Below, one piece after another: positions 45,301 through 64,000 of a stretch of DNA of 64,000 nt. Numbering within the stretch: position 1 is the stretch's first letter; each line of letters begins with the position of its first letter. Origin of the DNA: Candidatus Kapaibacterium sp. (GTDB lineage Bacteria > Bacteroidota > Ignavibacteria > Kapaibacteriales > UBA2268); assembly GCA_963665665.1 (NCBI GenBank), contig OY762428.1, positions 1,056,001-1,120,000 of the forward strand, in the 5' to 3' direction. The position numbers and the translations under genes are program-made. A model generated the notes under the pieces. That model searched no databases. It worked only from the letters and a program-made list of their open reading frames with translations, and was not told the DNA's origin.

Positions 45301-47689
45301 GGATTGAAGAATAAAGGCCTTTAAGGTTTGTCTCTGCAGCATTGTAGAGATAAACAGGGCCTTCAAACTCTGTACCAGTAGCAACGGAAGGACAAGCACC
45401 AGTATAATCTGTCCACCATGGGGCAAATGTATATTGGTAATCACTTACGTCAGAGTCATCATAAATTAATGAACCCTGGCTGCTTGTATTAAATACGTTT
45501 TCCGGGTGAGTCGGGCCGTATTTGCCAGTACCCCAGAAGTTGTATCTGATATCAAGAGCATTGCTGCCATCAGCATTATAAACTGCATAATCAGGTCCGG
45601 CTGAGGAATAATTGCTGAAGTCATGATAGTAAACTTCAATTCCATTAGCAGAACCAACATAAACACCGATTGCAGCATCACTGATATTATTACTGTAGAT
45701 CTCAACATTTGTAAATGTTGATGTTCCCGCAGCAATCGCAGCAGCAAATGAATCGTCATTAATGTTATTACACTGAACAAGAACATCATTAACATAATCG
45801 TAAGATGATCCTGAATATTCCACACCAATGTGAATTGCTGACGGCTCGTATGATCCAACAACAACACCAGAATAATCAGTATAGAATGTGTTTCCTGTTA
45901 CTTCAACTTCTGACCTTTCAACGATAACACCATTGAGCATACTATTTGAGATCAGTGGCATACCGAACATATTGTCAAAAATCTGTACAGGGTCACCAGT
46001 GAAGCTAGTTGAACCATTGTCAAACATCCTTATACCGAAATAACCGTCATCTGTTGTTTCTAACTGACTTTCTTCAGTAAGGAACCAGTTATCATGAATA
46101 TCCAGGCCGCCAATTCCGTCTTCGCTGCCAAGATAATCATTTACGATACCGATAGATGTTGTTCCAGATGCTTCTGTAAGAGGAACATAGAATTTATTAT
46201 TCTCAATTTCAGCATCAGCTGACTCAGTAATACCGAGAATATAAGCTGCTTCCGAAGCAGGAGTAATATCCGTTTTAAAAGAGAAACCATGGATATAAAC
46301 ATCGCCGTTAATGGCATATACTTCGTGCTGAGGATTATGTTCTGAGAAAGTAGTAGCAGATGCTGTAACTATATCGTCGCAAATGATAACATGACTGTCA
46401 GGCGAGTTTGTATTTGCACCTGTCGGGTCATCATGAGCGAAAAGTTCGATACTAACAGGAATGTCGAGACATTCTTCATAAGTACCGTCTGATACCATAA
46501 CGCGTTCGTTATTGTCGGCATCATCAATAGCATCCTGAATGTCGTAACGAATAAAGCGGGCTGAGCCGGCATCTGTACGTGAATCTGTAATTTCATCACC
46601 AGATGTTAAAGCAGCAGCAGAGTGGAGTACACTTCCGCCAAAATCATTACTATTGTTCCACCAGATATCATAAAGCATTATACCTGCAAAGTCCTGGTCG
46701 GCCTTTACAATGATATCGTTGGGTATATCAAACATGTTGTTATTTACATATACATCATTGTTTGATTCGTCAATGTTCAGACATGAGAGGTACATACCAA
46801 AGTTAGCTGTACTTGAAGTTGCAGAAGTTTCAAAAGTATTTTCTGAAATTTCTACAGCACCTTCAAGGTTCCAGATAGCTATAGCATAACCTTCTGTTTC
46901 TGCGCTGTTAGGTGTGTCACCGCAATCAGTAATTGTATTATACTGAATATAGGTACCTTCGGCATTAACATCAAATGTTGTACTACCTATTTGGATACCA
47001 TTTGTAACACAGTTAGTGATAGTATTACTACCACCGCTAGTACCAATCGTATTCAGGTCAATGCTGTTTGAAGCATTTGTTGAAACGATAATAATACCAA
47101 CACCACCGTGTGAATTGACTTTAGGATTGTCCTGCAAGTCAATTGATGTGTTTGTCACGGTCGCATCGCTGGTATTAGAAAGGTACATACCCCAGGTACA
47201 GTTCTCAATCGTTAGATTGTTAAAAACATGCCCTGCGGATTGGTTAATTGAGACAATGGCTGCGCCACCGTCATTAATAAAATCGCTACCGTTGGTTTGA
47301 GCAACGTAATCCTGAATAGTAAAGTTCTGGATAGTGACGTTATCCGCCGCTATATAAAAACCGACAGCTCTACTGCCGCCTCCCAGTCCTGTACCATCCA
47401 AGGTCGGGTAAGGGTCGCCATTATTTGCAGGAAGCCCTACAATAGTCAGGTTATTCTTACCAGCGCCAACATCAACACTTTCGTTATAAGTGCCGGTTAC
47501 GACGTTGATTACGTCTCCACCATCGGCAACGTTAACTGCATTTTGGATAGTCAGCTTCGCATTGAGTAATGTCAAACCATCATTGGCATCATTACCGGTG
47601 GGCGAAACATAATAACCCGTTGCAGTCATGGCATACGTACTCAGGACGAAAGCCGCCAGGAGTACGAAAAGTCTACCAAAACGTTGCAT
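36305..47689 (-). CDS. Giant (3794 aa) T9SS-secreted surface protein: tandem beta-helix modules, Ig/FN3-like domains, type A C-terminal domain
   Basis: Signal peptide, recurring SIQ.AID.A..G..I.V..GTY.E caps and N(F/W)W....GP ends, Ig strands (QWQWNDG..W; YYVKVRANSTCG), and terminal LMPVPATD...VLDLSGRKV...SGTYIL...KKFIIAR. Acidic and Thr/Ser/Asp/Asn-rich. Confidence 0.9.
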   Translation of the reverse strand: MQRFGRLFVLLAAFVLSTYAMTATGYYVSPTGNDANDGLTLLNAKLTIQNAVNVADGGDVINVVTGTYNESVDVGAGKNNLTIVGLPANNGDPYPTLDGTGLGGGSRAVGFYIAADNVTIQNFTIQDYVAQTNGSDFINDGGAAIVSINQSAGHVFNNLTIENCTWGMYLSNTSDATVTNTSIDLQDNPKVNSHGGVGIIIVSTNASNSIDLNTIGTSGGSNTITNCVTNGIQIGSTTFDVNAEGTYIQYNTITDCGDTPNSAETEGYAIAIWNLEGAVEISENTFETSATSSTANFGMYLSCLNIDESNNDVYVNNNMFDIPNDIIVKADQDFAGIMLYDIWWNNSNDFGGSVLHSAAALTSGDEITDSRTDAGSARFIRYDIQDAIDDADNNERVMVSDGTYEECLDIPVSIELFAHDDPTGANTNSPDSHVIICDDIVTASATTFSEHNPQHEVYAINGDVYIHGFSFKTDITPASEAAYILGITESADAEIENNKFYVPLTEASGTTSIGIVNDYLGSEDGIGGLDIHDNWFLTEESQLETTDDGYFGIRMFDNGSTSFTGDPVQIFDNMFGMPLISNSMLNGVIVERSEVEVTGNTFYTDYSGVVVGSYEPSAIHIGVEYSGSSYDYVNDVLVQCNNINDDSFAAAIAAGTSTFTNVEIYSNNISDAAIGVYVGSANGIEVYYHDFSNYSSAGPDYAVYNADGSNALDIRYNFWGTGKYGPTHPENVFNTSSQGSLIYDDSDVSDYQYTFAPWWTDYTGACPSVATGTEFEGPVYLYNAAETNLKGLYSSIQLAVDAAATGDHIIVKEGTYSESVTVDEEVYLRGKKPVTGTTGIPSGTADAWTGGTAGTGSGPIVAGDGTGTLFFFAADNVSMRGFNLDMTATGVTAGVQFTGSLNNSRIEYCSFDLDGTDAGVDVSDGNGVNYLDVNWNTFTTASSTTWFQITPTSTTTSNVTLSNNDVDGNNNAYFGLGAGIAGVTVNNNDIADGGFVFADPSATFTGRTFSGIYFHHNTFQNGSTNDPALYIMQDVLGGTDIADFDNEFKFLYNIVLDTDASPAVGFESASISLNGGNDLEARWNFWASANGPAVKHDGNYGYVELEGNQFEYPTQGAEVTPGVEFVRWFTTNALTTLYAPIWNNDSPVDYFANLDDALAGTDAANIVYFDDGDFAFVTSSTITQSVKLQGKGYSATTVLDGQYKNSGQTPGAPWVQGDYNEPMIFVAADNVTIDGFKIDLGNDANDFDGAVWTDAGALRTTVYIQDSWLLYAAGFDGTDREKLVSFPWAADARVLNSLLETAGTDIGGAFSVASGSVTNLYITDNTFKPYTTAEGGVNQSGYGSVLGCVQDGLGTFLGGITNAEISGNSASYSGSIDLGFGDINSDNIVITCNTFEYTNGAIDVFTTDASATLTDLTITQNIFSNYTAVPILFRADDNTIQDDVNINFNSFTDETSAAIYVAANAYGGTAGIDATDNYYDSQYGPENALNTYVGSSTADQGAAITDVSGSLTFVPFWTEVSGLVCNLTGTSYAPIIRATDEDPATATILEYYSSIQAAIDDASAGQFIWVKNGTYQEDNIDAHVADVCVVGKKADGLTSAYDATTPGYIGGPTIIPTSSPSELFTITADNVSLRGLRMIPSMAGPTVPAVEIRNISISNFAADHNTILQNPAVGVAVTSASITGTLLDYNVFTGTMGYALLVEESEANNTEFSNNDVENSLLLFGINDDDLSVVDINNNDFNASELIYYGSSTGTGTLASASITNNNFENTSEVNIGYLGLLSDANVATDWSTDMILYHNSFTSDCSVSYSITGTSSSLTAECNWWGSANGPDHADNTKMGTLGATVSDGVDYLPWLNDGTDVYPSQVGFQTVASCVGANVYVATTADMLTTADIVDYYASIQTAIDDANDGEFIWVTNGSYLENVTPATGEGHGWVNDGDTYINGNIDLSISNTSSASVTLYDEFYATGNMPIGGTAHMFLGDNDMNVGGTITNVGVCNSFVVTNGTGSLVAENVDQYDLVLLPIGVGGEYLPIEFRANSTNFLTGSKYAARVNATNPADEFSKGDDTYATDHTYYLGAYDPTGTIYPESTDLDLELRFGLTCNSTAGTNFDAAWSYAARWDEELDPDAWTDYGSGSNHTTDLLQVSGVDHLQTAWGIFSGTSAFALNDEPTPAQIIIFRKPANPDSELKFRWTNGDGTGVLVGAIQASSMPTDGSEYPVDGQEYPTLTDNGTVGWAETSNVTRTSGKLIYKNDNVTTRTEELVLTGLNAGTEYTIGVFSFNGSSNQTNYFTNIDGTPDLARRNSRSYWTWPLGSMTVASGTPACATPTTSADVCAVVCYDGDLDLVFDIDGGQNGANSEVRYSNGQTTDRVTGILSFPYTYTVNNIITTNLYTLISMRDNRGKACVIDPQNDEVEVQVNVPPTVTILTADQDVCENDNFTVTADVTGNPTPTNPVWSWTTDGGTSWAVVSTDAGNAFGTSTGSATVTGNNLVIDSPVHALDGMELMVTYSNVSGCGAATVSSSNSITINIDQAPNANGTWATTRTAFCESEVIELEFTADGAAYGTRQWQWNDGSTWINVGGDFTVSGTSASITSNQISYSSASFRIVYSNGVCTDANTTVYGPISVSDAPNLSNITEEPAGAVCIGDDKVLWITYDNISGMNNPKLWETDGSSVTEVTSGSFSLAGNSASWTVTAQDGFQYWATASNGACSETTTTVTLTASPIPTITTIEGFGDNNDDYDNEIDVCDDGTATFSTNVADATSITWYVDFLNDAQSYIAIPLSGSFEGTTVTARAANSSTLTLSNVPYSRTNPGDPDWKNAIIKIVASNGTCASEVISQMIMYDAPIFWHVTGDIQDNTTKTICIGGDLEYSALAYSQACGPVVPTWWTNANASRSWTQVTTGSYGSGDYAATISIPALAPNTIEITGVSGGWDGAEVEARFVCGPCGAVSSPASTITVDLPPAAPAAVAVAAHDTYPATRITADWADVTDADDYTVQVFTSADVQVGSDVVVTPSSWTASDCALDPNMTYYVKVRANSTCGSSSFTSSPTITTTEPTVTFVSQSGTDFGYIEEMTESSTSYSVLYTFSELDYPIQVSVADNDGNDNFRVREDAADAWASTITLTDESGTFWVQYYPQGEHLNHSGTITVQENATCYAGDSFTVEFTGAAYISEPAQDCEINFTSNASTSFTFTFQEYGTVNGGHIVVLMEGYSLPAFTWTPSDFTDYADNNGSWSSATEVASGFRVVDVIPDTDGSNTTHTVTVTGLESDKNYVAHVFAYNQGSGPKNYNTSDCSQNPWTIYQLRFLAAYMPAEVELSHDTFDELGVERTDRLGNPITDGTVNITLTPVDAGTLADAIYDDGTYAGAVANNTGNIGGGSSSVTFASFEWDSYPNYERYYQYMGDGRAYNKIKASATGYLSGYTENSGTDDGFVLRATEPYRQARRIQVIDDACVGGEGMVQLSWSNGRNGNARVVVMRENNYPSLPVDGEYYNVGSGNINFTTNTVVVPEGGTDGSKAIANGDVDESGEISGLNDDTYYYAKVTEYRYNGHHGVAAPTTNYIDDLGTGNPLSIEIPDCRITAGGMYVELDQFTAKSYNANAYLDFNTTFEQGIVGFELYRADVTNTSWDAVDFDYVKVGSFTSDAGLVAIGGVDNRYSFVDDDVNLRVGDEYLYKLVAVGIDGREFLLAHRDVIILSRENEEAGLFVSNLMPVPATDHLTFTLELQSSQNVTVNVLDLSGRKVLGALNGSYYSAGAHDIKINLDNVVSGTYILNIRAGEDQIIKKFIIAR

Positions 47690-48183: not shown

Positions 48184-48215
48184 AAAAAAAAAGCGCCCCC
48201 TGTCAGGGACGCTTT
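48184..48215 (-). terminator. Rho-independent terminator of the fibre gene
   Basis: Minus strand AAAGCGTCCCT-GACA-GGGGGCGCTTT followed by a T-run. Confidence 0.75.
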
Positions 48216-48238: not shown

Positions 48239-51200
48239 TTATTGAATTCTATGCCATACAAGGTTTGCATCAACAACAAACATTGCAGCATCACCAGGAT
48301 TTAATACTGTTGAATCAGCATCATCAAGTGTAAGAACTGCTGTTGCATTGCTGTTAATTACATAAAGAACCTGTCCTTCTTCTGAGTAACCGCCATCAGG
48401 TAGTGTAATATTTGTAGTGCCAAGATTAGCAGTAACATCAATTACAGTTGCCCAACCCAGATTTGTCCAGTTTGTTGAAAATGTCATTGCTGTAGCAGCA
48501 GCGGCATCAAGTTCAAAGTAGGAAAGAACTAATTTACCATAGGACATATGGAGTGTTGTTGCATTTGAATTTGTAGGTTCGTTTATGTTAGAATTAATAG
48601 TAGGATTACCTTCTGCAAGGATTGCTTCCCTTATATTAGCATAAGATGATACTTTAAGAGTACCATGGTTTACTTCAAGGTCGCCTCTTTCAATTACAAG
48701 TGCTTTACCAGTTTGATCAGATCCATTTGTATATTCATTACGAATAACAACTGTAGGATCTCCCGTAGGATCTGAAGTGTTAGTTGCAATAAGTGATGTT
48801 TCATCTGCTGTGGAGTTAGCAAATGTACCTGTGTGGCTGAATGTAAAGTCACCGTCGATTGCAATACCAGTGTTCCTTGTAAGAACTTCATAACCGTCAT
48901 AGTAGAGGTCTGATGAATATGTTCCGGAAGGAGCTGTGATAGAACCGTCGCTGGATACAACGATCTGATCAACGCCACCGGCCTGTACGCGAAGTGCACT
49001 TCCGATAACAACATCACCATCTGTCTGGATAGCTACGTCTGTTGCTGCACCTGTTGTGTTATTAACTCTTAATACAGGACTTGTTCCTGTTGCAGCATCA
49101 ATTCTAACGGTTCCGTCAACATCAACTACATCAAGGTTTGTTGTTCCGTCAACATCAAGATCACCGTTAATGTCAACATCATCTGTAACATTAAGGTCAT
49201 TGTTAACATTAATCGTATTGCCAACATATAGGTTATCTGTAACTGTTCCGGAAGAACCTACGATAAGTGTGCCTGAAACAGTCTGGTTTGTTACTTCAAG
49301 ATCATTTCCAACAAATACATCAGAGAATGAAGCATCTGCAGGAGTTGTAGCACCGATAGTAACATCATCCATTGTACCGCCATCAATATTTACATTAACA
49401 GCTGTGAAAGCAGTGTTAGCTTCAAGTGTTGTGAAGTAACCTGTTGCGCGTGTAGTATTACCAATGATTGTAGCATCGATATTACCACCATTTACGTCAA
49501 CGTCTGCAAATGTCTGTTCTGCAACCCAGCTGTTAGCATTGTTCATGTTAAGAGTAAGGCTGTTACTGTTTTCTGTAAGAGTACCGTCATACATAAGGTC
49601 AATCGGGTTAGCGGCTGTACCTGTACCTGTAATCGGGTGATCTGTTACAACTTCAGCATCGATACGAACTGTAGTACCAGTGTTAGTAGTAGTAATGTTT
49701 GTACCGCCTTCGAATGTGATAGCATGTGCAGCGTCTGTAAGATCAAATGCAGCACCTGCATCAGCACTTACAGAAGCGAATACTGTAGCATCAGCGATTT
49801 CAGTTGTACCAACAACGCCAGCATTAATATCAAGGTTAAGATCATCTGAATCTGTGCCTGTAATATTAATATCAGATGTAGTACCGTTATCATTAACAAG
49901 TACGTTAACGTTAGCAGCTGCTGTTAAGCGGCCATCTGCATCAACTGTAAATGTTGCAACTTCTGTAGCTGAACCATAAGAATCAGCAGAAACTGTTGTA
50001 GCAATAAGCTCATCAGCGCCAACTGAATTGTCAGCCATGTTGCGAAGCTCAACTGCGTTATCCTGGATCATACCATTTTCAATTGCAAGAGGCTGAATTG
50101 TGAAGCCAGCTGCATAGCTGCCGTCAATATCATTTACGATTGCAGGTGTATCATTGAATGTTACAACGTCAATACCATTTTCTGTAATGTCGCCGTTTAC
50201 TTCAAGGTCGCCAGTGAAAGTACCGCTGCCATTTACAACAACAGGGCCTGTAGCTGTGATAGCGTTTCCGCCAAGAGCTGATTCTACAACAAGTCCGTCA
50301 TAAACTGTTGCGCCGCCAGCTATTTCAGCGCCATTATCAACTGCAAGGAAGTTATGTATATCAACTCTTCCTGTGAAGTCACCTGTACCTGTTACAGTCA
50401 GATCACCATCAATATCAACATCGCCTGTAATGTCAGCACCGTCAGCGTTAACAAGAAGGCCACCGCTAACTATTTCAACACCCTGGTTAACCCAGAGGTC
50501 TTCATTAATTTCAACAAATCCGCCAAATACTGCTTCGCCAGTTGTAAAATCAATATAACCGTTAACGCCGTCCCATGTAAGGCCTGTGCCTGTTAATGTT
50601 GCGTTAGCACCTGCAGGATCGCCAACAAATAAGCCATTTGTGAAGTTCTGGATGTCTATCCATGTGTTTTCATGGTTCATGTTAAGTGAAAGGCTATTGC
50701 TGTTCTCTGTGAGAGAAGCATCATACCAGAGATCAATAGGATTGCCGGGTGTACCGTCGCCTACGATCGGGAAGTCAGTAATAACATCAGCTGAAATAAC
50801 TACTTCATTTGAGGCAGTTGCTTCGATATGAACGTTAGCATTACCTTCAACAAATGAGAATGTTCTGTTACCATTTGTAACATCAAATCCAGGACCGTTA
50901 TCGGCTGTTACTTCTGCGAAGATAGTTGCGCCGTTAATATCATCATTAACGATTGAACCGTCAACGATTTCTGTTGATCCAACAGTACTTGGATTAATAT
51001 CAAGTGTTAAGTCATCAGAATCTGTACCGCTGATTGCGATATCAGAAGCAGCATTATCGTCAACAAGAATATTAATGTTAGCTGCTGCTGTTAATCGGCC
51101 ATCTTCGTCTACAGTAAATGTTGCAACTTCTGTAGCAGAACCATAAGAATCAGCAGCAACTGCTGTTGCTATGAGTTCGTCCGGTCCAACAGAATTGTCA

Positions 51201-54200
51201 GCCATGTTGCGAAGTTCAACTGCGTCATCAGCAATGTAATCATTGATAACGCCATTGTCTTCAATACCAACTGTTGCATTAGTAGCAGGTGTAAGGTCTA
51301 CATTGATACCTCTGATACCTTCAATGCCTTTGCTGTTTGTAAGAGCACCTGGAGTATCCCATACTATAAATGGTTCGTCAATGTCAGCTTTGAGAGCAAG
51401 GCCGTCATCAACATAACCTTTTGTTGTTAATGTTGTACGTCCGTCTGCTGCATCTGTTTCATCTGAATAACCTTTTCCATCAAGATAAAGGTCTGCATGT
51501 CCGGTAATATCACCAGCTGCTTCAATGAAGTCATTAACTTCCAGACCTAATTCAACATAACCCTGGCCCCAGAACCAGAAGTCACCAAAGACACCATCAA
51601 TTTCAACCATTTCAACACCACCGTCATACATTGTAAGACCTTCAGATGAACCAAGGTATCCAGTCTGACCAATAGTAATTTCTGCACCACCCGGGAATGT
51701 AATATCATTGAAATTCTGATTTACTGCCCAGTTATTTACATGTGTCATGTTAAGAGTAAGGCTGCTGCTGTTAAGCGCGAGAGCTTCGTCGTAAGCAAGA
51801 GTAATTTCATCGCCAGGAATGCCTGAACCTACAACAGGATCAGCAGTCTGTACGAGAGCTGAAATTTCTACCTGGTTGCCAGGAAGAACTTCAATGCTTA
51901 CGTTAGGATTACCTTCAACAAAGTTGATTGCATTGTTAGTGTTTGTAACGTCGAATGAATCCATATCAGGATCAACAACTGTTGCAAATACAGCGTCGTC
52001 ATGAATATCGCCATTTACGATAGTACCATCAAGAATCTTAGCTGATGTTACAGCGTCAGGCTGAATTTCAAAACCGTTTGTATAATCACCGTCAATATCA
52101 AGTACTGTTAACGGGTTCATATCAACGTCTACAACATCAATACCATTGTGCTGAAGTGCACCGGCAAAGTTATAGTCCTGTGTAAGATCAACGTCTTCAG
52201 GAAGAATTGTACCGTTATCAATTTTATCAGTAGTTACAGCATTTGCTGCAAGTTTGTCATTATCAACTGCAAGATCAGCAATTTTTTCTGTTATAACAGC
52301 GCCATTAGCGATTTTTGTTGTTGTAACAGCTAAATTATCAATTTTGCCTGTTGTTACTGCAAGATTATTAATCTTACCTGTTGTTACTGCAAGGTCATCA
52401 ATTTTAGCAGTTGTTACACCAAGGTCAGTGATACCAACTGTAGCATTACCTGCAGCTGCAAGGTCAACTGTGATACCTTCCACGCCTGCAACGCCTTTGC
52501 TGTTTGTCAGGTTTGTAGGAGTATCCCATACAAGGTAAGGCTCGTCTTCAAGAAGGTCGATATGATCTTCTACCCAGCCTTTTGTAACCATAGTATTAAT
52601 AGGATCAGCATCAACTGTTACGTCTGAATAGCCTTTTCCTGTTATGTTAAGGTCGCCCATGATATCAACGTTTGCATCAAATTCTGCATCGCCGTCAACA
52701 TCAAATGTACCGTCAACCCAAACGTTTCCAACAACATTCAAATTCTGTGAGAATGTTGAGCTTTCATCAACAAGAAGAGCACCGTGGATTGTTACATCAT
52801 CACTGATTTCCATCGGAGCGTCAGGAGCTACCGGAGGAGTAAGTGTTACGTGGAGTCCGTTAGGATCACCAACGATTACTTCTTCCATACCAAGAATTGT
52901 TGTAGCGCCGATTGTTGAGTTTGCCCAGATATCGCCATAAGTTTTGATAGCTGTTTTCATTGCAGCAGCATTTGTGTTGCGTACAACGAGAACTGCATTG
53001 TCAGCGTCTGTAGGATCAAGGATACCAGTTACATTTTCACTGTTACCTTCGATATACATTGCACGGCCTTCATTTCCGCCGCCTCTGATTACTTCAGCTA
53101 CGTATTCGTCAACTGCAGGATTAGACATTGCATAGAGTGCCTGGCCTGTTTCAGCTATACCAACGATAGCATCGGCTGTACCGTCTGCATCGCCATATAC
53201 TGCTGCTGCATCATCGTCACCGGCTGTAGCTTCAAGATAGAAAGCACCGGCTGCGTGCATACCTGTTGTATTATTAATTACTGTATGTTCAACAACGAGA
53301 GCAGCTGAGCTGTGTCCGTCGTCGCCATCAACATCCATATCAATATAAGCGCCAATTGCATTGTCTTCAAGAGTTGTTACATCAACGTCTACATGAAGAG
53401 CACCTTCGCCAAGCTGTCCGTCAGTTGTTCTGTTGATATCAACTGTAGGAACACCATTACCACCACCGGAAGCAACGATAGCTGAACCGGCTGTTGTAAG
53501 GTTAGAAGGAACTTCAGCAACGATAGCGTCGCCATTGTTAGTCATTGTTACTGTAAGACCATCGCCATTTGCGGCTGAAGAGTTTGTCAGGTCAACTACA
53601 TTGCCTGTACCGGCAGTTTTGTTGAGAGCAAACATTGTCTGGTCTTCATCATTATCTTTAGTTACCGGAACTGTGAAATCATCAATTGCCCAGTCAGCGT
53701 ATCCGTCACCACCGTCATTGTTCCATTTAAGAACATATTCGAATGTAGGATCAACTGCAGGTGCTGTACCTGTATAAACCCAGGCTGTTCCATTCCAGTA
53801 AGCCATCTGGCCAAGAGTATTAGCATCAGCAAACTTATCAAGAGTTACTGCGCCATCTTCAATTTTATCTGTTGTTACTGCATCGTCAGCAAGGTCATCT
53901 TCCATAACCTGGCCGTCAGCAATTTTCTCTGTTGTTACTGCATCATCAGCAAGTTTGCCATTTGTAACTGCAAGGTCAGCAATTTTTGCTGTTGTTACAT
54001 TAAGGTTAGCAATCTTATCTGTTGTTACATTACCGTCAGCAATTTTTACTGTTGTTACATTGCCGTCAGCAATTTTTTCTGTAATAACTGCTGCATCAGC
54101 AATTTTCTCTGTAGTAACGTTAAGATCAGCAATTTTAACTGTTGTTACTGCATCATTGTCAATCTTAGGTGTTGTCACTGCAAGGTCAGCGATTTTATCT

Positions 54201-57200
54201 GTTGTTACAGCGCCATTTGCAATATCAACTGTCTGAACAGAAAGGTCAGCGATTTCATCACTGCCAACTGCACCGGCGTTAATATCAAGTGTTAATGCAT
54301 TTGCAACTGCACCAGAGATAGAAATATCTGATGTAGCAACATCGTCGTCAACCCAGATGTCAACATTCTGTGCGAATGTTAAACGGCCATCTTCGTCAAC
54401 TGAGAACTGTGCAACTGCTGTTGATGTACCATAGTCGCCGCCTGTTACTGCTGTTGCAATAATTTCGTCCGGGCCTACGGAGTTATCAGCCATTTTTTCA
54501 AGTGTAACTGCATTTTCAGCAATTTTCATTTCTGTTACAGCGTCGTCAGCAATTTTTACTTCTGTTACTGCTGCATCAGCAATTTTTGCTGTTGTTACAT
54601 TAAGGTCAGCAATCTTTGTTGTAATAACTGCTGCATCAGCGATTTTTTCTGTTGTTACATTAAGATCACGGATTTTACGAGTAGTTACAGCAGCATCTTC
54701 AAGTTTAGGTGTAGTTACTGCATTGTTAGCGATTGTACGAGTAATGATAGCGTTATCCTGAATATCAACATCCTGGATTGAGAGGTCAATGATCTCGTCG
54801 CTGCCAACTGTACTCGGGTTAATGTCGAGAGTTAAGCTTGATGAAACCGGGCCACTGATAGCAATATCAGAAGCAAGTACTTCATCAACAAGAATATCTA
54901 CATTCTGTGCGAATGTAAGGCGGCCGTCTGCATCAACTGCGAACTGGCCTACTGCTGTTTCTGTTCCGTAATCGCCGGCTACAACCGCTGTTTCAATCAG
55001 TTCGTCCGGGCCTACTGAACCGTCAGCCATTTTATCTAATGTTACAGCATTGTCAGCAAGTTTTGCTTCTGTTACTGCTTCATTCTGAATTTTCGGTGTT
55101 GTTACTGCTTCGTCAGCAATTGTACGTGTGATAATTGCATTGTCAGCAATATCAACATCCTGGATAGAAAGGTCAATGATTTCATCACTGCCTACTGTGC
55201 TGGGATCAATTTCAAGTGTAAGAGCTGATGATACGCCACCGCTGATTGAGATATCAGAAGCTACTACATCATCTACAAGAATGTTTACATCCTGTGCGAA
55301 TGTAAGGCGGCCGTCTGCGTCTACTGTGAACTGGCCAACTGCTGTTTCTGTACCATAAGTACCGCCAACAACTGCTGTTTCGATAAGTTCGTCAGGACCA
55401 ACTGAACGGTCAGCCATTTTATCTAATGTTACAGCATCTTGAGCAATTTTTGCTTCTGTTACTGCTTCATTCTGGATTGTACGTGTTGTTACTGCTTCGT
55501 CAGCAATTGTGCGAGTGATAATTGCGTTGTCTGCAATATCTTCTGCAAGAATTGTCTGCTGAGCAATTTCTGTTGTTGTTACAACGTTAGGATTGATCTG
55601 AAGATCAAGCATATCCGGCATGTCATTATTAACAAGGATGTCTGAGTTCTGGCCGTCGTCGGCAAGTCTCATTTCAACCCAGTCCATACCGTTCCATTTC
55701 AGCATAACGCCGTCCATGCCTTCACCATTCTGAAGTTTAGAATAAGTGATAGCGTCGTCAGCGATGTCTGCTGTAATGATTGTTTCATCAAGGATAGTAC
55801 GTGAGTCAATTTCACCGTCTGCAATCATTGCATTGCGGAGGAAGTCATTGAACCAGCGTGTACCATTGAAGAAAAGTATATTATTTTCGCCAACGCCTTC
55901 TTTCCACATTTCAATGGGTTCGTCGTAGCCGTTGCCGATAATTTCGTTAGCTGTGTTGATAAGAGCGTGGGGAACTTCCCATCTCATCTGCATTGCTGTG
56001 TTGTCCCATGTAAGAACATAACCATCTTCAAGAGCTGTAGGCTGAAGTGGTGTAGCATTCAGGTTGTTAGGCTCGATAAGCTGAGCTTCCCATGTACCTG
56101 ATGCCTGGTTGAAATAGAGAACTGAATTTTCGTTACCAACGTATTCTGCATCATCTCTAAGTTTGATAGGATCATCAGCATTACCGCGACCTGTGATCGG
56201 GTGATGTGTTGAAACCATGGGAACGCCCCAGTAGAATTCGCCTGTTGCAGCATCCCATACCGGTGAGTACTGGTCTGCAGCAGGTTTTGACCATGTAAGT
56301 TCATTCGGTGTATCAACTTTATAGTTATAATACATGAAAGTACCAACATAACCCATACCTGGTTTGTCAACTGTTTCGCCTTCTTCTGTGCTGGCATAAA
56401 TTTCTCTTACGCCTGCTACATCAGGATAAAGCTGAAGGTCAAGAGCATCAATGTCTGTTCCAACAACTTCAATGTCTGAATTAGTCATGTCATCTTCTGC
56501 CTGGATAAGAACATCTTCAGCAAAAGTTAAACGACCGTCTTCGTCAACTGTGAAAGTACCAACGTTATATTCATCACCATAATCGCCAGCCATTACAGTT
56601 GTTGCCTGAAGTTCAAAAGGAGTAACTGCTTCTTCAGCAATTTTCTCTGTTGTAACCTGGCGATCACCAATATCTGCTGTAAGAATTGTGCCGTCCATGA
56701 TTTTGTCTGTTGTTACAGCATCGGGGCCAATTTTTTCGTTTGTTACAGCAAGATCAGCGATCTTCGGAGTTGTTATCTGCATGTCGGCAATATCTTCTGT
56801 AAGGATAGTACCGTTCATGATTTTGTCTGTTGTTACAGCATCCGGGCCAATTTTAATATTGGTTACCGCGCCGTTTGCAATTTTAACTGTAGTAACAGCG
56901 CCGTCAAAGATGCGGTCTGTTTTTACAGCGCCAACAGCGATCAGCGGATCAGGATAAGTGCCTGTCAGATCGCCTGCGGCCGGGCCACTCGGAGGAGTAG
57001 TTACATTCGGAGCAAGGTGTTCCTGAGTAATGGAACCAGCTTCGATATTGTCAATGATAGCCTGAGGATCGATACCCGGATTCGGATATTCGCCTGTCAG
57101 AACACCACCGGCCGGGCCAATCGGAATTGCCTGAACGCCGGGAGCAAGTTTTTCCTGAGTAATCGCGCCGTCAACAACATCCATTGCTACTCTTGCAGTA

Positions 57201-57595
57201 TCGGCATCGATAGCATACATAGCATAAGGATTAGCTGTTAACCTTGTCCTCGGGAATGGAGTACCGTTACCAACAGTTACTTCAAGCCAGTAAGGCCTGT
57301 TGAAAGTAAAGTTGATAGGATTCTGAGTACCGAGGTAAACATTTACGAAGCCATCAACGGAATTCACGTCCTGGATTTCAACCCAGATAGGACTTCCGCC
57401 GAACTCGTCTTCATAAATTCTGAAAGTCACGGGTGTCCCCCCGTCGGCTATTGGTTCGTTATTCTCATCAAGCAAACTTGCCTGGTAGTTCAGGACTCTC
57501 GGAACAGTTTCATCTGCTGCCCAAGACTGAGTAAACTGAGCCATGGCAAGGATTGCTACTAGAACGAAACTTAGAAGAATAGATTTCTTCATCAT
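48239..57595 (-). CDS. Giant (3118 aa) exported phage-tail-fibre-like repeat protein
   Basis: Signal peptide, N-terminal VPRVLNYQASLLD...RTRLTANPYAMYA domain, dozens of AVTT.KIAD. decapeptides, six YG....V..F.VD.DGRLT.A units, G.LTG.YP.P and PI.G.G....PI.L motifs. No T9SS C-terminal domain. Confidence 0.85.
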   Translation of the reverse strand: MMKKSILLSFVLVAILAMAQFTQSWAADETVPRVLNYQASLLDENNEPIADGGTPVTFRIYEDEFGGSPIWVEIQDVNSVDGFVNVYLGTQNPINFTFNRPYWLEVTVGNGTPFPRTRLTANPYAMYAIDADTARVAMDVVDGAITQEKLAPGVQAIPIGPAGGVLTGEYPNPGIDPQAIIDNIEAGSITQEHLAPNVTTPPSGPAAGDLTGTYPDPLIAVGAVKTDRIFDGAVTTVKIANGAVTNIKIGPDAVTTDKIMNGTILTEDIADMQITTPKIADLAVTNEKIGPDAVTTDKIMDGTILTADIGDRQVTTEKIAEEAVTPFELQATTVMAGDYGDEYNVGTFTVDEDGRLTFAEDVLIQAEDDMTNSDIEVVGTDIDALDLQLYPDVAGVREIYASTEEGETVDKPGMGYVGTFMYYNYKVDTPNELTWSKPAADQYSPVWDAATGEFYWGVPMVSTHHPITGRGNADDPIKLRDDAEYVGNENSVLYFNQASGTWEAQLIEPNNLNATPLQPTALEDGYVLTWDNTAMQMRWEVPHALINTANEIIGNGYDEPIEMWKEGVGENNILFFNGTRWFNDFLRNAMIADGEIDSRTILDETIITADIADDAITYSKLQNGEGMDGVMLKWNGMDWVEMRLADDGQNSDILVNNDMPDMLDLQINPNVVTTTEIAQQTILAEDIADNAIITRTIADEAVTTRTIQNEAVTEAKIAQDAVTLDKMADRSVGPDELIETAVVGGTYGTETAVGQFTVDADGRLTFAQDVNILVDDVVASDISISGGVSSALTLEIDPSTVGSDEIIDLSIQDVDIADNAIITRTIADEAVTTPKIQNEAVTEAKLADNAVTLDKMADGSVGPDELIETAVVAGDYGTETAVGQFAVDADGRLTFAQNVDILVDEVLASDIAISGPVSSSLTLDINPSTVGSDEIIDLSIQDVDIQDNAIITRTIANNAVTTPKLEDAAVTTRKIRDLNVTTEKIADAAVITTKIADLNVTTAKIADAAVTEVKIADDAVTEMKIAENAVTLEKMADNSVGPDEIIATAVTGGDYGTSTAVAQFSVDEDGRLTFAQNVDIWVDDDVATSDISISGAVANALTLDINAGAVGSDEIADLSVQTVDIANGAVTTDKIADLAVTTPKIDNDAVTTVKIADLNVTTEKIADAAVITEKIADGNVTTVKIADGNVTTDKIANLNVTTAKIADLAVTNGKLADDAVTTEKIADGQVMEDDLADDAVTTDKIEDGAVTLDKFADANTLGQMAYWNGTAWVYTGTAPAVDPTFEYVLKWNNDGGDGYADWAIDDFTVPVTKDNDEDQTMFALNKTAGTGNVVDLTNSSAANGDGLTVTMTNNGDAIVAEVPSNLTTAGSAIVASGGGNGVPTVDINRTTDGQLGEGALHVDVDVTTLEDNAIGAYIDMDVDGDDGHSSAALVVEHTVINNTTGMHAAGAFYLEATAGDDDAAAVYGDADGTADAIVGIAETGQALYAMSNPAVDEYVAEVIRGGGNEGRAMYIEGNSENVTGILDPTDADNAVLVVRNTNAAAMKTAIKTYGDIWANSTIGATTILGMEEVIVGDPNGLHVTLTPPVAPDAPMEISDDVTIHGALLVDESSTFSQNLNVVGNVWVDGTFDVDGDAEFDANVDIMGDLNITGKGYSDVTVDADPINTMVTKGWVEDHIDLLEDEPYLVWDTPTNLTNSKGVAGVEGITVDLAAAGNATVGITDLGVTTAKIDDLAVTTGKINNLAVTTGKIDNLAVTTTKIANGAVITEKIADLAVDNDKLAANAVTTDKIDNGTILPEDVDLTQDYNFAGALQHNGIDVVDVDMNPLTVLDIDGDYTNGFEIQPDAVTSAKILDGTIVNGDIHDDAVFATVVDPDMDSFDVTNTNNAINFVEGNPNVSIEVLPGNQVEISALVQTADPVVGSGIPGDEITLAYDEALALNSSSLTLNMTHVNNWAVNQNFNDITFPGGAEITIGQTGYLGSSEGLTMYDGGVEMVEIDGVFGDFWFWGQGYVELGLEVNDFIEAAGDITGHADLYLDGKGYSDETDAADGRTTLTTKGYVDDGLALKADIDEPFIVWDTPGALTNSKGIEGIRGINVDLTPATNATVGIEDNGVINDYIADDAVELRNMADNSVGPDELIATAVAADSYGSATEVATFTVDEDGRLTAAANINILVDDNAASDIAISGTDSDDLTLDINPSTVGSTEIVDGSIVNDDINGATIFAEVTADNGPGFDVTNGNRTFSFVEGNANVHIEATASNEVVISADVITDFPIVGDGTPGNPIDLWYDASLTENSNSLSLNMNHENTWIDIQNFTNGLFVGDPAGANATLTGTGLTWDGVNGYIDFTTGEAVFGGFVEINEDLWVNQGVEIVSGGLLVNADGADITGDVDIDGDLTVTGTGDFTGRVDIHNFLAVDNGAEIAGGATVYDGLVVESALGGNAITATGPVVVNGSGTFTGDLEVNGDITENGIDVVTFNDTPAIVNDIDGSYAAGFTIQPLAIENGMIQDNAVELRNMADNSVGADELIATTVSADSYGSATEVATFTVDADGRLTAAANVNVLVNDNGTTSDINITGTDSDDLNLDINAGVVGTTEIADATVFASVSADAGAAFDLTDAAHAITFEGGTNITTTNTGTTVRIDAEVVTDHPITGTGTAANPIDLMYDGTLTENSNSLTLNMNNANSWVAEQTFADVDVNGGNIDATIIGNTTRATGYFTTLEANTAFTAVNVNIDGGTMDDVTIGATTPADASFSDVFVGNDLEVTNQTVSGTLIVGSSGTVTDNLYVGNTINVNNDLNVTDDVDINGDLDVDGTTNLDVVDVDGTVRIDAATGTSPVLRVNNTTGAATDVAIQTDGDVVIGSALRVQAGGVDQIVVSSDGSITAPSGTYSSDLYYDGYEVLTRNTGIAIDGDFTFSHTGTFANSTADETSLIATNTSDPTGDPTVVIRNEYTNGSDQTGKALVIERGDLEVNHGTLKVSSYANIREAILAEGNPTINSNINEPTNSNATTLHMSYGKLVLSYFELDAAAATAMTFSTNWTNLGWATVIDVTANLGTTNITLPDGGYSEEGQVLYVINSNATAVLTLDDADSTVLNPGDAAMFVVDANLVWHRIQ

Positions 57596-57659
57596 TTAGT
57601 TCCCCTAAAATGGTTATACAAATAAATTTCACTATAACTTAATGTTATTATTTTCATAG

Positions 57660-58247
57660 TTATCTTACTAATACCATTACATTTCGCAAATTATAAGCTC
57701 TGAAGCTGTCGCCTGCCATCTGGGCCGGTTTAACAACCAGTTCATAAAGATAAGAACCGGAGGCAGCATCTGTACCTGTAAAGTCTTTTCCGTCCCAGGC
57801 TGCCTGCTGTTCGCCGGAATTCTGATATCCGCTGAACAGTTCTTTAACTTTGTTACCTGAAACATCGTAAACAGTTAATGTAACGTAGGCGTAACCCGGC
57901 AGGAAGTACTGAACTGTAGTACTGCTGCTGAACGGGTTAGGGTAGTTCGAAAGCCTTGCTTCCGGTGGTGTCGGTTCCGGCACATCAACGCCCTGGTTTG
58001 CCTTCGGCACCCAGTAACCCTGATATACATCGATGATCTCGCCCGAATCTCCGTTCGAGATCTTCTCGATTGCTAACTGCCCAATCATCCCCGACATTTT
58101 CATGCCTGAAGAATTTTGAGCAGCAACCATTCCACCGCTGCCCATTGCCCACTTCTGAATGCGAACATTCTGTGAGAACAGGCCGCTCATCGTCAGCGGC
58201 GCAAGGATGCTGACAATGAGGAGTAACCTAAAGTGTTTTTTCATCAT
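57660..58247 (-). CDS. Small T9SS cargo protein (short beta-rich N-domain plus FlgD-Ig-type C-terminal sorting domain)
   Basis: Signal peptide, SGG...MSGMIGQ...YQGYW, then LSNYPNPFSSSTTVQY...VYDVSGNKVKEL...WDGKD..G...ASGSYLY. AGGAG ribosome-binding site. Confidence 0.85.
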   Translation of the reverse strand: MMKKHFRLLLIVSILAPLTMSGLFSQNVRIQKWAMGSGGMVAAQNSSGMKMSGMIGQLAIEKISNGDSGEIIDVYQGYWVPKANQGVDVPEPTPPEARLSNYPNPFSSSTTVQYFLPGYAYVTLTVYDVSGNKVKELFSGYQNSGEQQAAWDGKDFTGTDAASGSYLYELVVKPAQMAGDSFRAYNLRNVMVLVR

Positions 58248-63230: not shown

Positions 63231-64000
63231 TTATTTTACCACTACAAACTTTGCTGCGGCAACTTCTTTTCCACTTCTGACTATCAGCCAGAAAACACCG
63301 GAAGAAAGTTTGGAAACGTTAAATTCCATTTCAGTTAATCCCTGGCTAAGGGTTTTCTTATTACCAGGTAATACCAGATTACCAATATTATCGCAAATAG
63401 AAATTTCAGCTTCCATGAATGTACCGCTATTTATTTCAGCAGTTAAAATACCATTTGAATTTTCGTGTACTGATAAAATTTTCAAAAGGCCGGAACTAAG
63501 TCCGCCATTAGATTCAAATACATCACTATCTTTCAGAACTGTCAGTTTTGCAGCATCGGATTCGGCCTCGCCGCACTCACCGATTATCTCACAATGGTAC
63601 ATACCAGAATCAGCCATCGAAACACCTTCTATCATCAGGCTGTCAGATTTCATATTTAATATTTCCTGGCCGTCTTTGAACCATTGATATTCCAGGTCTT
63701 TACCTAAGGCTTCAACTTTAAAGACAACATTTGAATTTTCTTTTATCGTTTTATCCTCGGGACTTTGGCTTACTTCAGTTCCTTTAACAACAGTTAGCCG
63801 TACAGGGTCGCTTTCAGCCACCGGCTGGCAAAAGCCGCCAACAGAAACAGTATAATCTCCGGCATCAGTCATTCGAACTTCAGTAAGAACCAGAACAGAA
63901 TCTGTAGCACCGTTAATGGGATTGCCATTCAGGTTCCAGGCATAATTAATTTTTTCTCCATGAGCATGGCATTCAAGCATAAACTCTCCGCCCTCACATA
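63231..64000 (-). CDS. Ig-domain protein with a T9SS-like C-terminal domain, 5'-truncated by the window edge
   Basis: Frame is open to the window end (CEGGEFMLEC...). I-set motifs YQWFKDG and DAGDY/DSGMYHC. Terminal ICDNIGNLV...LSSGVFWL...KFVVVK. Confidence 0.85.
   Translation of the reverse strand, partial: CEGGEFMLECHAHGEKINYAWNLNGNPINGATDSVLVLTEVRMTDAGDYTVSVGGFCQPVAESDPVRLTVVKGTEVSQSPEDKTIKENSNVVFKVEALGKDLEYQWFKDGQEILNMKSDSLMIEGVSMADSGMYHCEIIGECGEAESDAAKLTVLKDSDVFESNGGLSSGLLKILSVHENSNGILTAEINSGTFMEAEISICDNIGNLVLPGNKKTLSQGLTEMEFNVSKLSSGVFWLIVRSGKEVAAAKFVVVK

Follow-up and report, generated by a model that had tools for sequence, protein, structure and literature searches.

A conserved gene pair encoding a small T9SS cargo and a MAT-like giant fibre, candidate parts of a two-component cell-surface appendage

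Introduction

The 64,000-nucleotide stretch of DNA analysed here (the window) encodes, side by side on its minus strand, a small protein ending in a T9SS sorting domain and a giant phage-tail-fibre-like protein that has none. What might the small protein do for its neighbour, and how might the fibre reach the cell surface and be held there? The first-pass annotation of this DNA had proposed an undescribed appendage system in which the small protein binds the N-terminal domain of the fibre and carries it through, or anchors it via, the T9SS. Cellular phage-like adhesins have a precedent in the MAT (mosaic adhesive trimer) fibres of Bdellovibrio bacteriovorus, which were reported in 2024 to serve as adhesins in prey recognition; the available text of that study leaves open how their constant N-domain is attached to the cell (Caulton et al., PMC10769870).

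Results

Organisation of the locus

The region comprises four elements:

57660-58247, minus strand: gene 1, small T9SS type-A cargo P0001, 195 aa (open reading frame and translation)
57596-57659, minus strand: intergenic spacer of 64 bp, with a purine-rich AGGGGA ahead of the fibre ATG (from the sequence)
48239-57595, minus strand: gene 2, MAT-like fibre protein P0002, 3118 aa (open reading frame and translation)
48190-48215, minus strand: intrinsic-terminator-like hairpin and T-run, closing the two-gene unit (scan)

The two genes had been described as a single unit, and both this description and its coordinates hold: a scan found no terminator-like site in the 64-bp spacer (57596-57659), and a terminator-like hairpin follows the fibre gene at 48215-48190 on the minus strand, 24 nt past the fibre stop (11 pairs, 6 of them G-C, a loop of 4, then a T-run). 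Over 49 pairs in the loci that we fetched, some contigs being counted twice, the median gap between small and fibre gene is 50 bp. Upstream of the pair lie genes for an RsmB/F methyltransferase, a HAD hydrolase and a 2-oxoacid dehydrogenase E2, and downstream lie genes for T9SS, beta-helix and TPR proteins. The claim that no phage genes are nearby thus stands for the adjoining genes, housekeeping on the upstream side, these neighbours being its scope. Just past the terminator, at 36305-47689, a second giant T9SS protein of 3794 aa is encoded, which the earlier annotation had not recorded.

The small protein

The gene 1 product is divided as follows:

58170-58247, minus strand: signal peptide, aa 1-26, ending ...LFS ahead of QN (hydrophobic N-terminus by eye; AF2 helix at residues 3-20)
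58002-58169, minus strand: smallN module, aa 27-82, ~55 aa with four short beta-strands and the motif GSGG...GQ...QG(F/Y)W
57954-58001, minus strand: Pro/Glu-rich linker, aa 83-98 (variable, gap-rich alignment columns; without secondary structure in AF2)
57663-57953, minus strand: T9SS type-A C-terminal sorting domain, aa 99-195 (PF13860, TIGR04183, AF2, Foldseek)

The sorting domain scores above the cut-offs of Pfam FlgD_ig (PF13860; 40.9 bits against 27, E 2.1e-10) and TIGR04183 (25.6 bits against 23), and reaches only 20.9 bits against PF18962, under that family's cut-off of 27. AF2 models residues 99-195 at a pLDDT of 97-98 in the Ig-like beta-sandwich fold expected of a sorting domain, for which the best Foldseek match is PorU (6za2, 2.4e-4) and the next PorZ (5m11, 1.6e-3). 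The genome itself encodes a PorU sortase (NF033707, 853 bits against a cut-off of 420, C1:3305095-3308379). Thus, by its sorting-domain match, its fold and the presence of PorU in the same genome, the gene 1 product qualifies as a T9SS type-A cargo.

The smallN module is modelled by AF2 as strands at residues 39-44, 50-54, 61-65 and 72-76, with a pLDDT of 57-78 that is moderate despite 102 aligned sequences. Its conserved columns in alignment A1 (G32, Q33, G53, F54 and W55) are the motifs that the first-pass annotation had quoted, and the picture of a beta-rich SGG...SGMIGQ...YQGYW peptide on a T9SS sorting domain is confirmed by the translation and by the Pfam and NCBIfam matches. Neither Pfam nor NCBIfam has a family for smallN. 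Orthologues of gene 1 in family relatives (19 loci) are 178-214 aa long.

The giant fibre

Four parts can be distinguished in the gene 2 product:

57518-57595, minus strand: signal peptide, aa 1-26, ending ...SWA ahead of AD (by eye)
57236-57505, minus strand: N-domain, aa 31-120, a compact beta-sandwich of ~90 aa, a distant relative of the Bdellovibrio MAT N-domain
48572-57145, minus strand: fibre body, about aa 151-3008, phage-tail-fibre-like repeats (PHROGs, motif counts)
48242-48571, minus strand: C-terminal tip, the last ~110 aa, with the motif LPxGxxGQxxYxxN...W

The protein contains no Cys and is rich in T, D, A, V and G. The PRVLNYQ...PYAMYA N-terminus reported earlier is present in the translation, and, again as reported, neither Pfam (E<=0.1) nor NCBIfam places a T9SS sorting domain, an autotransporter barrel or S74 anywhere in the fibre. 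The likeness of the body to phage tail fibres was also borne out, with PHROG matches to phrog_892 (2.8e-85), phrog_28766 (9.7e-75) and phrog_21412 (2.1e-39), 20 'AVTxxKI'-type and 6 'TVDxDGRLT'-type motifs, and no PDB sequence relative at E<=0.01. Classification as a trimeric autotransporter or type V adhesin was rejected, the C-terminal membrane-anchor barrel being absent in Pfam and NCBIfam.

A cryptic C-terminal secretion domain would have offered the fibre an exit of its own, and none is recognisable: the last 153 aa have no NCBIfam match at E<=10, to a type A/B sorting domain or otherwise, and hhalign of the tip against a sorting-domain alignment returns a probability of 0.5%. The tip motif is kept in 8 of 10 complete orthologous fibres and recurs in some unpaired fibres, while the C-termini of paired fibres differ (tip motif, coiled coil, others). 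As the C-terminus varies among orthologues, it holds no constant signal. Fibre length ranges from 621 to 3118 aa among family relatives.

The N-domain model, built on alignment A2, reaches a block pLDDT of 87-96 for residues 1-90. No PDB relative was found for it, and the MAT N-domain likewise has none (PMC10769870). Against the profile of the latter, NF053851 (Bdello_MAT_N), the N-domain of the window gives 19.7 and 18.2 bits (E 5.8e-4 and 1.7e-3). The profile matches 27 of 33 relatives at E<=0.01, the best at 1.8e-9, with only two single-member rival matches, and its four best matches genome-wide are the four N-domains of the genome, aligned from profile positions 2-9. Membership in the curated Bdellovibrio subfamily was rejected (scores of 18-28 bits, cut-off 60). 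These matches support a distant relationship between the two N-domains and so place the fibre among a known kind. MAT fibres and the window fibre alike have a signal peptide, a constant beta-rich N-domain, a phage-like shaft and an exchangeable tip; as described in the available text, the MAT shaft is trimeric, the tip comes with or without S74, and the fibres are cellular rather than phage structures (PMC10769870). The PHROG matches and varied C-termini provide the phage-like shaft and exchangeable tip of a MAT-type protein here, in a version without S74. Two differences stand out: the window fibre is three times longer than MAT fibres, and it adjoins a small partner gene with a T9SS sorting domain, a partner of which the available description of MATs makes no mention (PMC10769870). 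The "undescribed appendage system" of the first-pass annotation must therefore be divided: the fibre is of a known, MAT-like kind, and what is new is the partner module and its link to the T9SS.

Could the fibre gene instead be the remnant of a prophage tail fibre, with no role in the cell? The PHROG matches of its body would suit such an origin, yet the flanks are housekeeping genes, the same site is occupied in 14 of 19 family relatives and the fibre carries a Sec signal. Moreover, 50,697 phage records yielded no match to either the N-domain or smallN, and IMG/VR contigs, searched with the N-domain alone, yielded no relative. We regard this origin as highly improbable.

Conservation of the gene pair

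It had been suggested that 'GQ...GFW + sorting domain' genes might accompany 'YQ...PYA' fibre genes, and across the genomes of the phylum this proved strongly positive. Firstly, we counted from the small gene. With the smallN of the window as query, 19 non-self matches were obtained in 18 of 24 genomes of the same family; 17 have a fibre N-domain match just downstream on the same strand and contig, and the other two loci stop 139 and 294 bp short of a contig end. An RsmB/F homologue lies upstream of the small gene, on the opposite strand, in 14 of these 19 loci; since these homologues share only 34-39% identity, the pair has stayed at one chromosomal site over deep divergence. A search of another 300 genomes of the phylum with profile A1 found 47 non-self smallN matches in 27 genomes. 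At least 38 of these genes have a fibre N-domain match on the same strand no more than 2.5 kb away (among the 150 of 219 such matches listed; cross-tabulated by hand). The other nine loci were fetched: two are adjacent to a fibre gene, three are without one, one is a 69-aa fragment, and three follow 5'-truncated open reading frames with fibre-body repeats at contig ends. Overall, 40 of 47 smallN genes are within 2.5 kb of a fibre N-domain gene and three more come after truncated fibre genes. In three genomes labelled Eisenbacteria, at least 7 of 9 smallN matches adjoin a fibre N-domain gene, one such MAG contig reading smallN, fibre N-domain, sorting-domain protein, fibre N-domain, smallN. The pairing is thus strongly conserved across the phylum and is found outside it too.

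Secondly, we counted from the fibre. A smallN gene is adjacent in 11 of 20 further fibre loci, and a gene for smallN plus sorting domain lies immediately upstream in 23 of 33 loci found by peptide pattern. A third set of 19 fibre loci was taken from 17 genomes in which the profile A1 search had given no smallN match; 13 of these have a sorting-domain open reading frame directly adjacent, and two more have one within two genes. All ten adjacent partners that were scanned have T9SS sorting-domain matches, three of them below curated cut-offs only. In the stretches fetched, a partner is absent from 9 of 20, 9 of 33 and 4 of 19 loci, respectively. The fibre N-domain occurs in 88 of 301 genomes and smallN, at E<=1e-3, in only 28, a gap for which divergent partners account in part, as the sorting-domain neighbours in smallN-negative genomes indicate. 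The pairing is therefore not universal: some smallN genes have no fibre neighbour, and many fibre genes are without a partner.

Where paired, the genes adopt two layouts, the partner lying upstream or, in the second layout, following one to three fibre genes; adjacency is seen in at least 12 families of the phylum, and also in a second phylum, with changing flanking genes and partners of 160 to 2356 aa. The small protein might still be a T9SS surface peptide in its own right, sharing only a transcript with an adhesin that surfaces by another route. Lone smallN genes and the many lone fibre genes fit this, and no computation here shows contact. Adjacency that persists through changes of layout, partner size and flanks, in so many families and a second phylum, is nevertheless hard to explain without a joint function, and we judge the absence of any physical link quite improbable.

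Distribution of the two modules

The smallN profile matches 2212 cluster representatives at E<=1e-3, and in 143 of the 150 listed the module starts by residue 56, directly after the signal peptide. Proteins of these thousands of clusters bear no annotation beyond hypothetical or their sorting domain. It is fused to varied anchors and scaffolds: a T9SS domain, a dockerin, a cohesin with dockerin and T9SS domain, Ig or BACON. One smallN-dockerin protein is labelled Chloroflexota. Tandem copies, and the fusions to dockerin or Ig domains, suggest that smallN may bind something broader than fibre bases. The passengers of the fibre N-domain vary as well, comprising fibres of many lengths and, in the same genome, LVIVD beta-propellers with coiled coils. 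No open reading frame in the fetched loci combines smallN with the fibre N-domain at E<=0.01.

Discussion

We propose that the two genes form an operon for a two-component fibre on the cell surface, in which the small protein would be a T9SS-delivered surface adaptor docking the fibre base, smallN and the fibre N-domain behaving like a docking pair. We assign this reading a probability of roughly 0.55. Adjacency by itself would fit docking, co-export and co-assembly alike, the support throughout being comparative genomics, and it is from this that we infer surface anchoring, contact between smallN and the N-domain, trimerisation and an adhesive role.

In the proposed scheme, the small protein would be exported by Sec and transported by the T9SS, after which PorU would cut off the sorting domain and the new C-terminus would be fixed to the outer-membrane surface, a step modelled on Porphyromonas type-A cargo. 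Anchoring to anionic LPS is known from Porphyromonas, which belongs to another lineage. What would be left on the cell is the ~55-aa, four-stranded smallN on a short linker. Gene 2 would supply a giant, presumably trimeric, MAT-like fibre with Sec signal, N-domain, shaft and exchangeable tip, whose N-domain may dock on smallN in the manner of cohesin and dockerin or of a phage baseplate adaptor. The fibre would then project from the cell, its variable tip pointing away from the surface and available for adhesion or for recognition of other cells or surfaces. As to how such a fibre, lacking a sorting domain, might cross the outer membrane, the simplest guess is export in complex with the small protein, which may therefore carry its candidate passenger out besides docking it.

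Such transport could also be the main function, with the small protein binding the folded fibre base in the periplasm and taking the fibre through the T9SS translocon, anchoring being secondary or absent; the two readings overlap and could hold together. A Sec signal without a type A/B sorting domain on the window fibre, the variable C-termini of its orthologues, and the sorting domain on all ten scanned partners and on the neighbour in 13 of 19 loci without clear smallN are all consistent with this piggyback route, and so tight an operon (gap of 64 bp here, 50 bp in the median) would suit co-translation and early complex formation. However, three paired fibres (L046, L049 and L051) keep their partner despite ending in sorting-domain-like tails of their own, which argues against a sorting domain supplied in trans as the sole role of the small protein; as regards the orientation of those fibres, these predicted tails also count against base docking. 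Full-text literature searches combining T9SS with piggyback, hitchhiking or cargo without a sorting domain found no precedent, and a trimer of 3118-aa chains would be a very large passenger. To our knowledge, Chloroflexota lack a T9SS, and the smallN-dockerin protein labelled as such could not serve T9SS transport. Transport as the main function seems unlikely to us.

Alternatively, the small protein might be an assembly factor or minor subunit of the fibre (a trimerisation nucleator, base collar or cap) rather than a cell-surface anchor. The conserved pairing would fit, and smallN, with four strands and moderate pLDDT, seems too small for an independent globular domain and would suit strand addition. 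There is also a faint resemblance to PamT, a CPR protein of ~240 aa predicted to be the tip subunit of the Pam pilus; it has a truncated Ig domain but lacks a T9SS domain. A tail-fibre-like gene is reported beside pam operons in the accessible text (Troman et al. 2026, PMC13278184). Positions 15-78, at the beginning of the PamT profile, give weak matches to smallN in 3 of 31 relatives (E<=1), with a best E of 1.4e-5. The small protein of the window was itself rejected as a PamT (NF058579, cut-off 240 bits), its smallN giving no match at E<=10 and the genome none at E<=1, and a folding helper would have no need of the sorting or anchoring domain found on nearly every partner. We consider this role improbable.

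The adaptor that we favour resembles several known systems in part. Like T9SS type-A cargo of the gingipain type, anchored by PorU, the small protein combines a signal peptide with a type-A sorting domain of the expected fold, in a genome with PorU; unlike such cargo, it presents a passenger of only ~55 aa that lacks any enzymatic or adhesin domain, and its apparent role would be to receive another protein. In SprB/SprF and other type-B proteins with PorP-like partners, a giant Bacteroidota adhesin likewise needs an attachment protein encoded next to it; there, as far as the accessible texts go, the giant bears the sorting domain and the partner is an outer-membrane barrel (PMC9143113, PMC12618676), whereas in the window the small partner bears the sorting domain and the giant none. 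Cohesin-dockerin systems and phage tail-fibre-to-baseplate adaptors share the principle of a constant small module on an anchored protein that receives varied passengers; binding is putative here, and no relation of sequence or fold came to light. smallN also occurs fused with cohesin and dockerin. The Aureispira grappling hook GhpA is likewise a long T9SS-dependent surface appendage of a Bacteroidota member and catches other cells, but according to the accessible text it is a heptamer and itself the T9SS substrate, unlike the pair described here (PMC12428579).

A MAT-related N-domain with a dedicated, conserved neighbour, a minimal module presumably anchored by the T9SS, offers a concrete candidate for an anchor, and the exit route of a 3118-aa fibre without a sorting domain becomes a question for the T9SS field. 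Co-export, if true, would be an exception to the rule that every T9SS cargo has its own signal, and a small protein carrying a giant trimer through the translocon would provide the first example of such a signal being supplied in trans. More speculatively, smallN and the MAT-type N-domain might form a general, unnamed docking pair that mounts Sec-exported fibres and other passengers on the surfaces of many bacteria and, in organisms with a T9SS, also carries the fibre; we hold this wider view only tentatively. Were it true, the anchor side would be swapped to suit the envelope: Bacteroidota and Eisenbacteria would use a T9SS sorting domain, and bacteria elsewhere dockerin or cohesin; PamT would perhaps be the anchor side in CPR bacteria, beside their 'tail fibre-like' gene, and the pair would put a name to the missing 'surface element' sought for the MAT fibres of Bdellovibrio. 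We know of no T9SS in Bdellovibrio. In uncultured Bacteroidota, surface fibres could be sought with the pair as a marker.

A two-gene unit for a small T9SS cargo protein and a giant fibre

The two genes and the site that follows them are all on the minus strand:

57660-58247, minus strand: small gene, an ORF of 195 amino acids (aa)
48239-57595, minus strand: fibre gene, an ORF of 3118 aa
48215-48190, minus strand: strong hairpin followed by a T-run, 24 nt past the fibre stop codon

The first-pass annotation had described these genes as one unit, and this was confirmed: the gap from the small gene to the fibre gene is 64 bp, a sequence scan detected no terminator-like site within it, and the hairpin and T-run come after the fibre. 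A sigma-70-like hexamer pair (10/12) lies at 57690-57719 (minus strand), within the 3’ end of the small gene and upstream of the fibre start; it was given no weight because chance alone would give 33 such sites and the scan returned 38. Upstream of the pair, the opposite strand encodes an RsmB/F-type methyltransferase, a HAD hydrolase and a 2-oxoacid dehydrogenase E2. The source genome is a single contig of 5.46 Mb and also encodes a PorU sortase (853 bits).

Three further genes of the window were noted. Directly past the terminator lies a second giant gene (36305-47689, minus strand; 3794 aa), the product of which starts with a NosD-like β-helix (TIGR04247, 9.3e-13) and contains fn3/Ig-like regions as well as a clear T9SS sorting domain. 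It was placed outside the conserved pair because an N-terminal homologue is present in only one relative locus (L026). Two more T9SS cargo genes encode an Ig-domain protein that continues beyond the window end (63231-63980, minus strand) and a 1516-aa protein containing VWA and HYDIN-like Ig domains (6303-10853, minus strand).

Architecture of the small protein and of the fibre

The small protein consists of a signal peptide (assigned by eye, as for the fibre), an N-terminal module of ~55 aa (smallN, aa 27-82), a Pro/Glu-rich linker and a type-A T9SS sorting domain (TIGR04183, 25.6 bits for a cut-off of 23; PF13860, 2.1e-10). AF2, run with 102 aligned sequences, predicts the sorting domain at pLDDT 97-98 and smallN as four short strands at pLDDT 57-78; the best structural matches of the small protein are PorU and PorZ of the Porphyromonas T9SS. 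Pfam, NCBIfam and PHROG searches returned no family for smallN, the conserved columns of which read GSGG...GQ...QGFW. In an ESM Atlas look-up, taken as a lead only, its best scores were 0.81-0.82 and every match was a “hypothetical protein”. A homologue search by word index yielded just 2 relatives for the small protein alone and 39, none with a functional name, for the alignment of 31 smallN modules (A1).

In the fibre, the signal peptide is followed by an N-domain (aa 31-120) predicted by AF2 to be a compact β-sandwich (block pLDDT 87-96). Compared with the PDB, this fold gave no match at E<=1e-3, only generic β-sandwiches being returned, and a sequence search of the PDB with the whole fibre found no relative. 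The body, which lacks cysteine, matches phage tail-fibre PHROGs (2.8e-85, 9.7e-75 and 2.1e-39) and carries 20 AVTxxKI-type and 6 TVDxDGRLT-type motifs. Neither the N-domain nor smallN had a match among 50,697 phage records, and no relative of the N-domain was found in IMG/VR contigs. As judged from these searches, phage-likeness is confined to the shaft of the fibre.

The last ~110 aa contain the motif LPxGxxGQxxYxxN...W, common to 8 of 10 complete orthologues. Overall, this tip motif of ~60 aa was seen at the fibre C-termini of nine fetched loci (L022, L023, L025-L028, L030, L043 and L056) and in a 613-aa ORF without N-domain (L048:11392-13233), and it is present on fibres with and without partner genes. 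It resembles an exchangeable tip module.

The fibre had been annotated as having no T9SS domain, autotransporter barrel or S74 domain, and Pfam and NCBIfam searches indeed detected none of the three. A cryptic C-terminal secretion domain, the presence of which would have spoken against the initial proposal, was looked for in the fibre sequence and none was recognised. A cryptic sorting domain was rejected as far as sequence tells, given the lack of a family match, an hhalign probability of 0.5% (fibre tip profile against the sorting-domain alignment) and the variable C-termini.

The two genes are paired within the family

With smallN of the window as query, we obtained 19 non-self matches in 18 of 24 same-family genomes and no match in 16 genomes from other families of the order. 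A fibre N-domain match lies just downstream on the same strand for 17 of these 19 genes; the remaining 2 are located at contig ends. Fibre length among the family loci ranges from 621 to 3118 aa. An RsmB/F homologue is found upstream of the small gene on the opposite strand in 14/19 loci, at only 34-39% identity, indicating that the pair has long occupied this place in the chromosome. That the fibre gene is the remnant of a prophage, a reading suggested by its phage-like shaft, is extremely improbable next to such residence and to an N-domain without phage relatives in the records searched.

The closest fibre N-domains in named records are from MAGs labelled Ignavibacteria, Kapaibacterium/Kapabacteria, Bacteroidota or FCB group. 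Eight fetched contigs (L074, L079, L081, L087, L088, L090, L093 and L098) are titled “uncultured Hyphomicrobiales bacterium” yet carry a Bacteroidota-type T9SS locus; these labels are probably wrong.

Pairing extends across and beyond the phylum

The A1 profile gave 47 non-self smallN matches in 27 of 300 further phylum genomes, and the profile of 33 fibre N-domains (A2) gave matches in 88 of 301 genomes. Among the matches listed, at least 38 of the 47 smallN genes lie within 2.5 kb of a fibre-N match on the same strand, in a cross-tabulation made by hand from 150 of the 219 fibre matches. The other 9 loci were inspected: 2 are adjacent to a fibre-N gene, 3 come after ORFs that lie at contig ends, lack their 5’ part and are rich in fibre repeats, 3 have no fibre, and 1 is a 69-aa fragment. 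The genome-wide pairing predicted in the first-pass annotation is thus borne out, with 40/47 smallN genes near a fibre-N gene here and 17/19 in the family. Two layouts were observed. In the first, a partner of 160-230 aa is upstream of the fibre; in the second, a partner of 290-470 aa (once 2356 aa) is downstream of one to three fibre-N genes.

Starting from the fibres, a smallN neighbour was found in 11 of 20 further loci. A gene for smallN and a sorting domain lies immediately upstream in 23 of 33 fibre loci found by pattern, some contigs of which overlap the family set. We also examined 19 fibre loci from 17 genomes without an earlier smallN match: a sorting-domain ORF, often with a degenerate smallN-like start, is immediately adjacent in 13, and one lies within two genes in 2 more. 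All 10 partners scanned have T9SS sorting-domain matches, 3 of them only below curated cut-offs; the local sorting-domain profile is narrow. One Eisenbacteria-labelled contig has the gene order smallN, fibre-N, sorting-domain protein, fibre-N, smallN, and in three genomes so labelled at least 7 of 9 smallN matches adjoin fibre-N genes. The genomes compared are related and therefore not independent of one another, although the pairs come from at least 12 families. Mere co-transcription of the two genes is a poor candidate to account for pairing over this range and in two gene orders.

Each module occurs in other combinations

A search of 1.84 billion cluster representatives with the smallN profile gave 2212 matches at E<=1e-3, 70 of them at E<=1e-10, with source names that are either “hypothetical protein” or that of the sorting domain. 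Among the matches listed, smallN starts by residue 56, i.e. directly past the signal peptide, in 143 of 150, and most proteins have 150-210 aa. In longer ones, smallN is joined to a dockerin, to cohesin, dockerin and sorting domain, or to BACON, Ig or CARDB domains. Three proteins (jointly P0020, P0029 and P0143) illustrate this: a Chloroflexota-labelled MAG protein has three tandem copies before a dockerin, a 1034-aa Ig-rich protein also has three, and one protein has a single copy with dockerin, cohesin and T9SS domain.

The N-domain of the fibre is likewise found on other proteins. In the source genome of the window, three tandem genes (C1:2468707-2477180, locus L073; 918, 740 and 735 aa) share the MAT-like N-domain; two of the products have LVIVD β-propellers, and all three have tails that are coiled-coil-like by eye. 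By eye, the 336-aa ORF that follows has a smallN-like start and a hydrophobic tail behind “IPTL”; it was not counted as a member (iterated smallN profile, E=0.76; no Pfam or NCBIfam match at E<=0.01). Among the fetched loci, no ORF holds smallN and fibre-N together at E<=0.01. One constant module is thus carried by anchored proteins and the other by passengers of various kinds, which is how a docking pair would be expected to behave.

A proposed T9SS-anchored receiver for the fibre base

We propose that the pair encodes a two-component surface fibre, in which a T9SS-anchored small protein receives the fibre base, and give this reading a probability of about 0.55. By analogy, the small protein would be exported by the T9SS and then fixed to the surface; smallN would receive the fibre base, leaving the variable tip to face outwards. 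The contact between smallN and the fibre, like the wider mechanism, is what we infer from the pairing and the modular distribution. A 1:1 complex prediction of A2 with A1 scored 0.13 and 0.17 (mark 0.32) and, run without controls, speaks neither for nor against binding.

Co-export while bound to the small protein would be an attractive way for a fibre that has no sorting domain to pass the outer membrane. Co-export as the main role of the small protein, although compatible with anchoring, is rather unlikely: smallN forms exist with non-T9SS anchors, and three paired fibres (L046:3089-13351, minus strand; L049:2860-8331, plus strand; L051:2860-9201, plus strand) have T9SS sorting-domain-like tails of their own, that of L051 matched by the local profile and those of L046 and L049 recognised by eye. 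Less probable still is a role of the small protein in assembly or as a minor subunit.

The mature chains of most orthologous small proteins and fibres begin with Gln after the predicted cleavage site (...AQ|...), which fits the Bacteroidetes “Q-rule” reported in PMC5837995. SmallN and the fibre N-domain both start only a few residues into the mature chain.

Relation to MAT fibres and to PamT

By profile comparison, the N-domain of the fibre and its counterpart in the Bdellovibrio mosaic adhesive trimer (MAT) fibres are distantly related. NF053851 (Bdello_MAT_N) matches the N-domain of the window at E 5.8e-4 and 1.7e-3 and 27 of 33 N-domain relatives at E<=0.01 (best 1.8e-9); genome-wide, its four best matches are the four N-domains. 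All scores are far below the 60-bit cut-off, and the fibre is therefore not a member of the curated Bdellovibrio subfamily. According to Caulton et al. (PMC10769870), MAT fibres show the same architecture, and their N-domain has no PDB relative, as is the case for that of the window, and presumably binds a surface element yet to be identified. The fibre of the window belongs to the MAT kind, of which it is a new and very large variant.

No description of this gene pair was found in the main texts of the literature on PamT, MAT fibres and SprF/PorP, nor in that on T9SS piggyback transport or cargo without sorting domain, or on T9SS tail fibres in Kapabacteria/Ignavibacteria. To the extent of these searches, neither the smallN module nor the consistency of its T9SS anchoring has been described.

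A link to PamT, which is predicted to be the tip subunit of the CPR Pam pilus, was kept as a lead only, being weak and absent from the window’s own small protein, for which an NCBIfam search gave no PamT match. The N-terminal start of the PamT profile (NCBIfam CPR_pilus_PamT) is weakly matched by 3 of 31 smallN modules, one of them that of L045:11261-12634 on the plus strand (E 1.7e-6 with and 1.4e-5 without signal peptide). The Pam preprint (PMC13278184) places a tail-fibre-like gene beside pam operons, and PamT might be a smallN-type receiver for the product of that gene.
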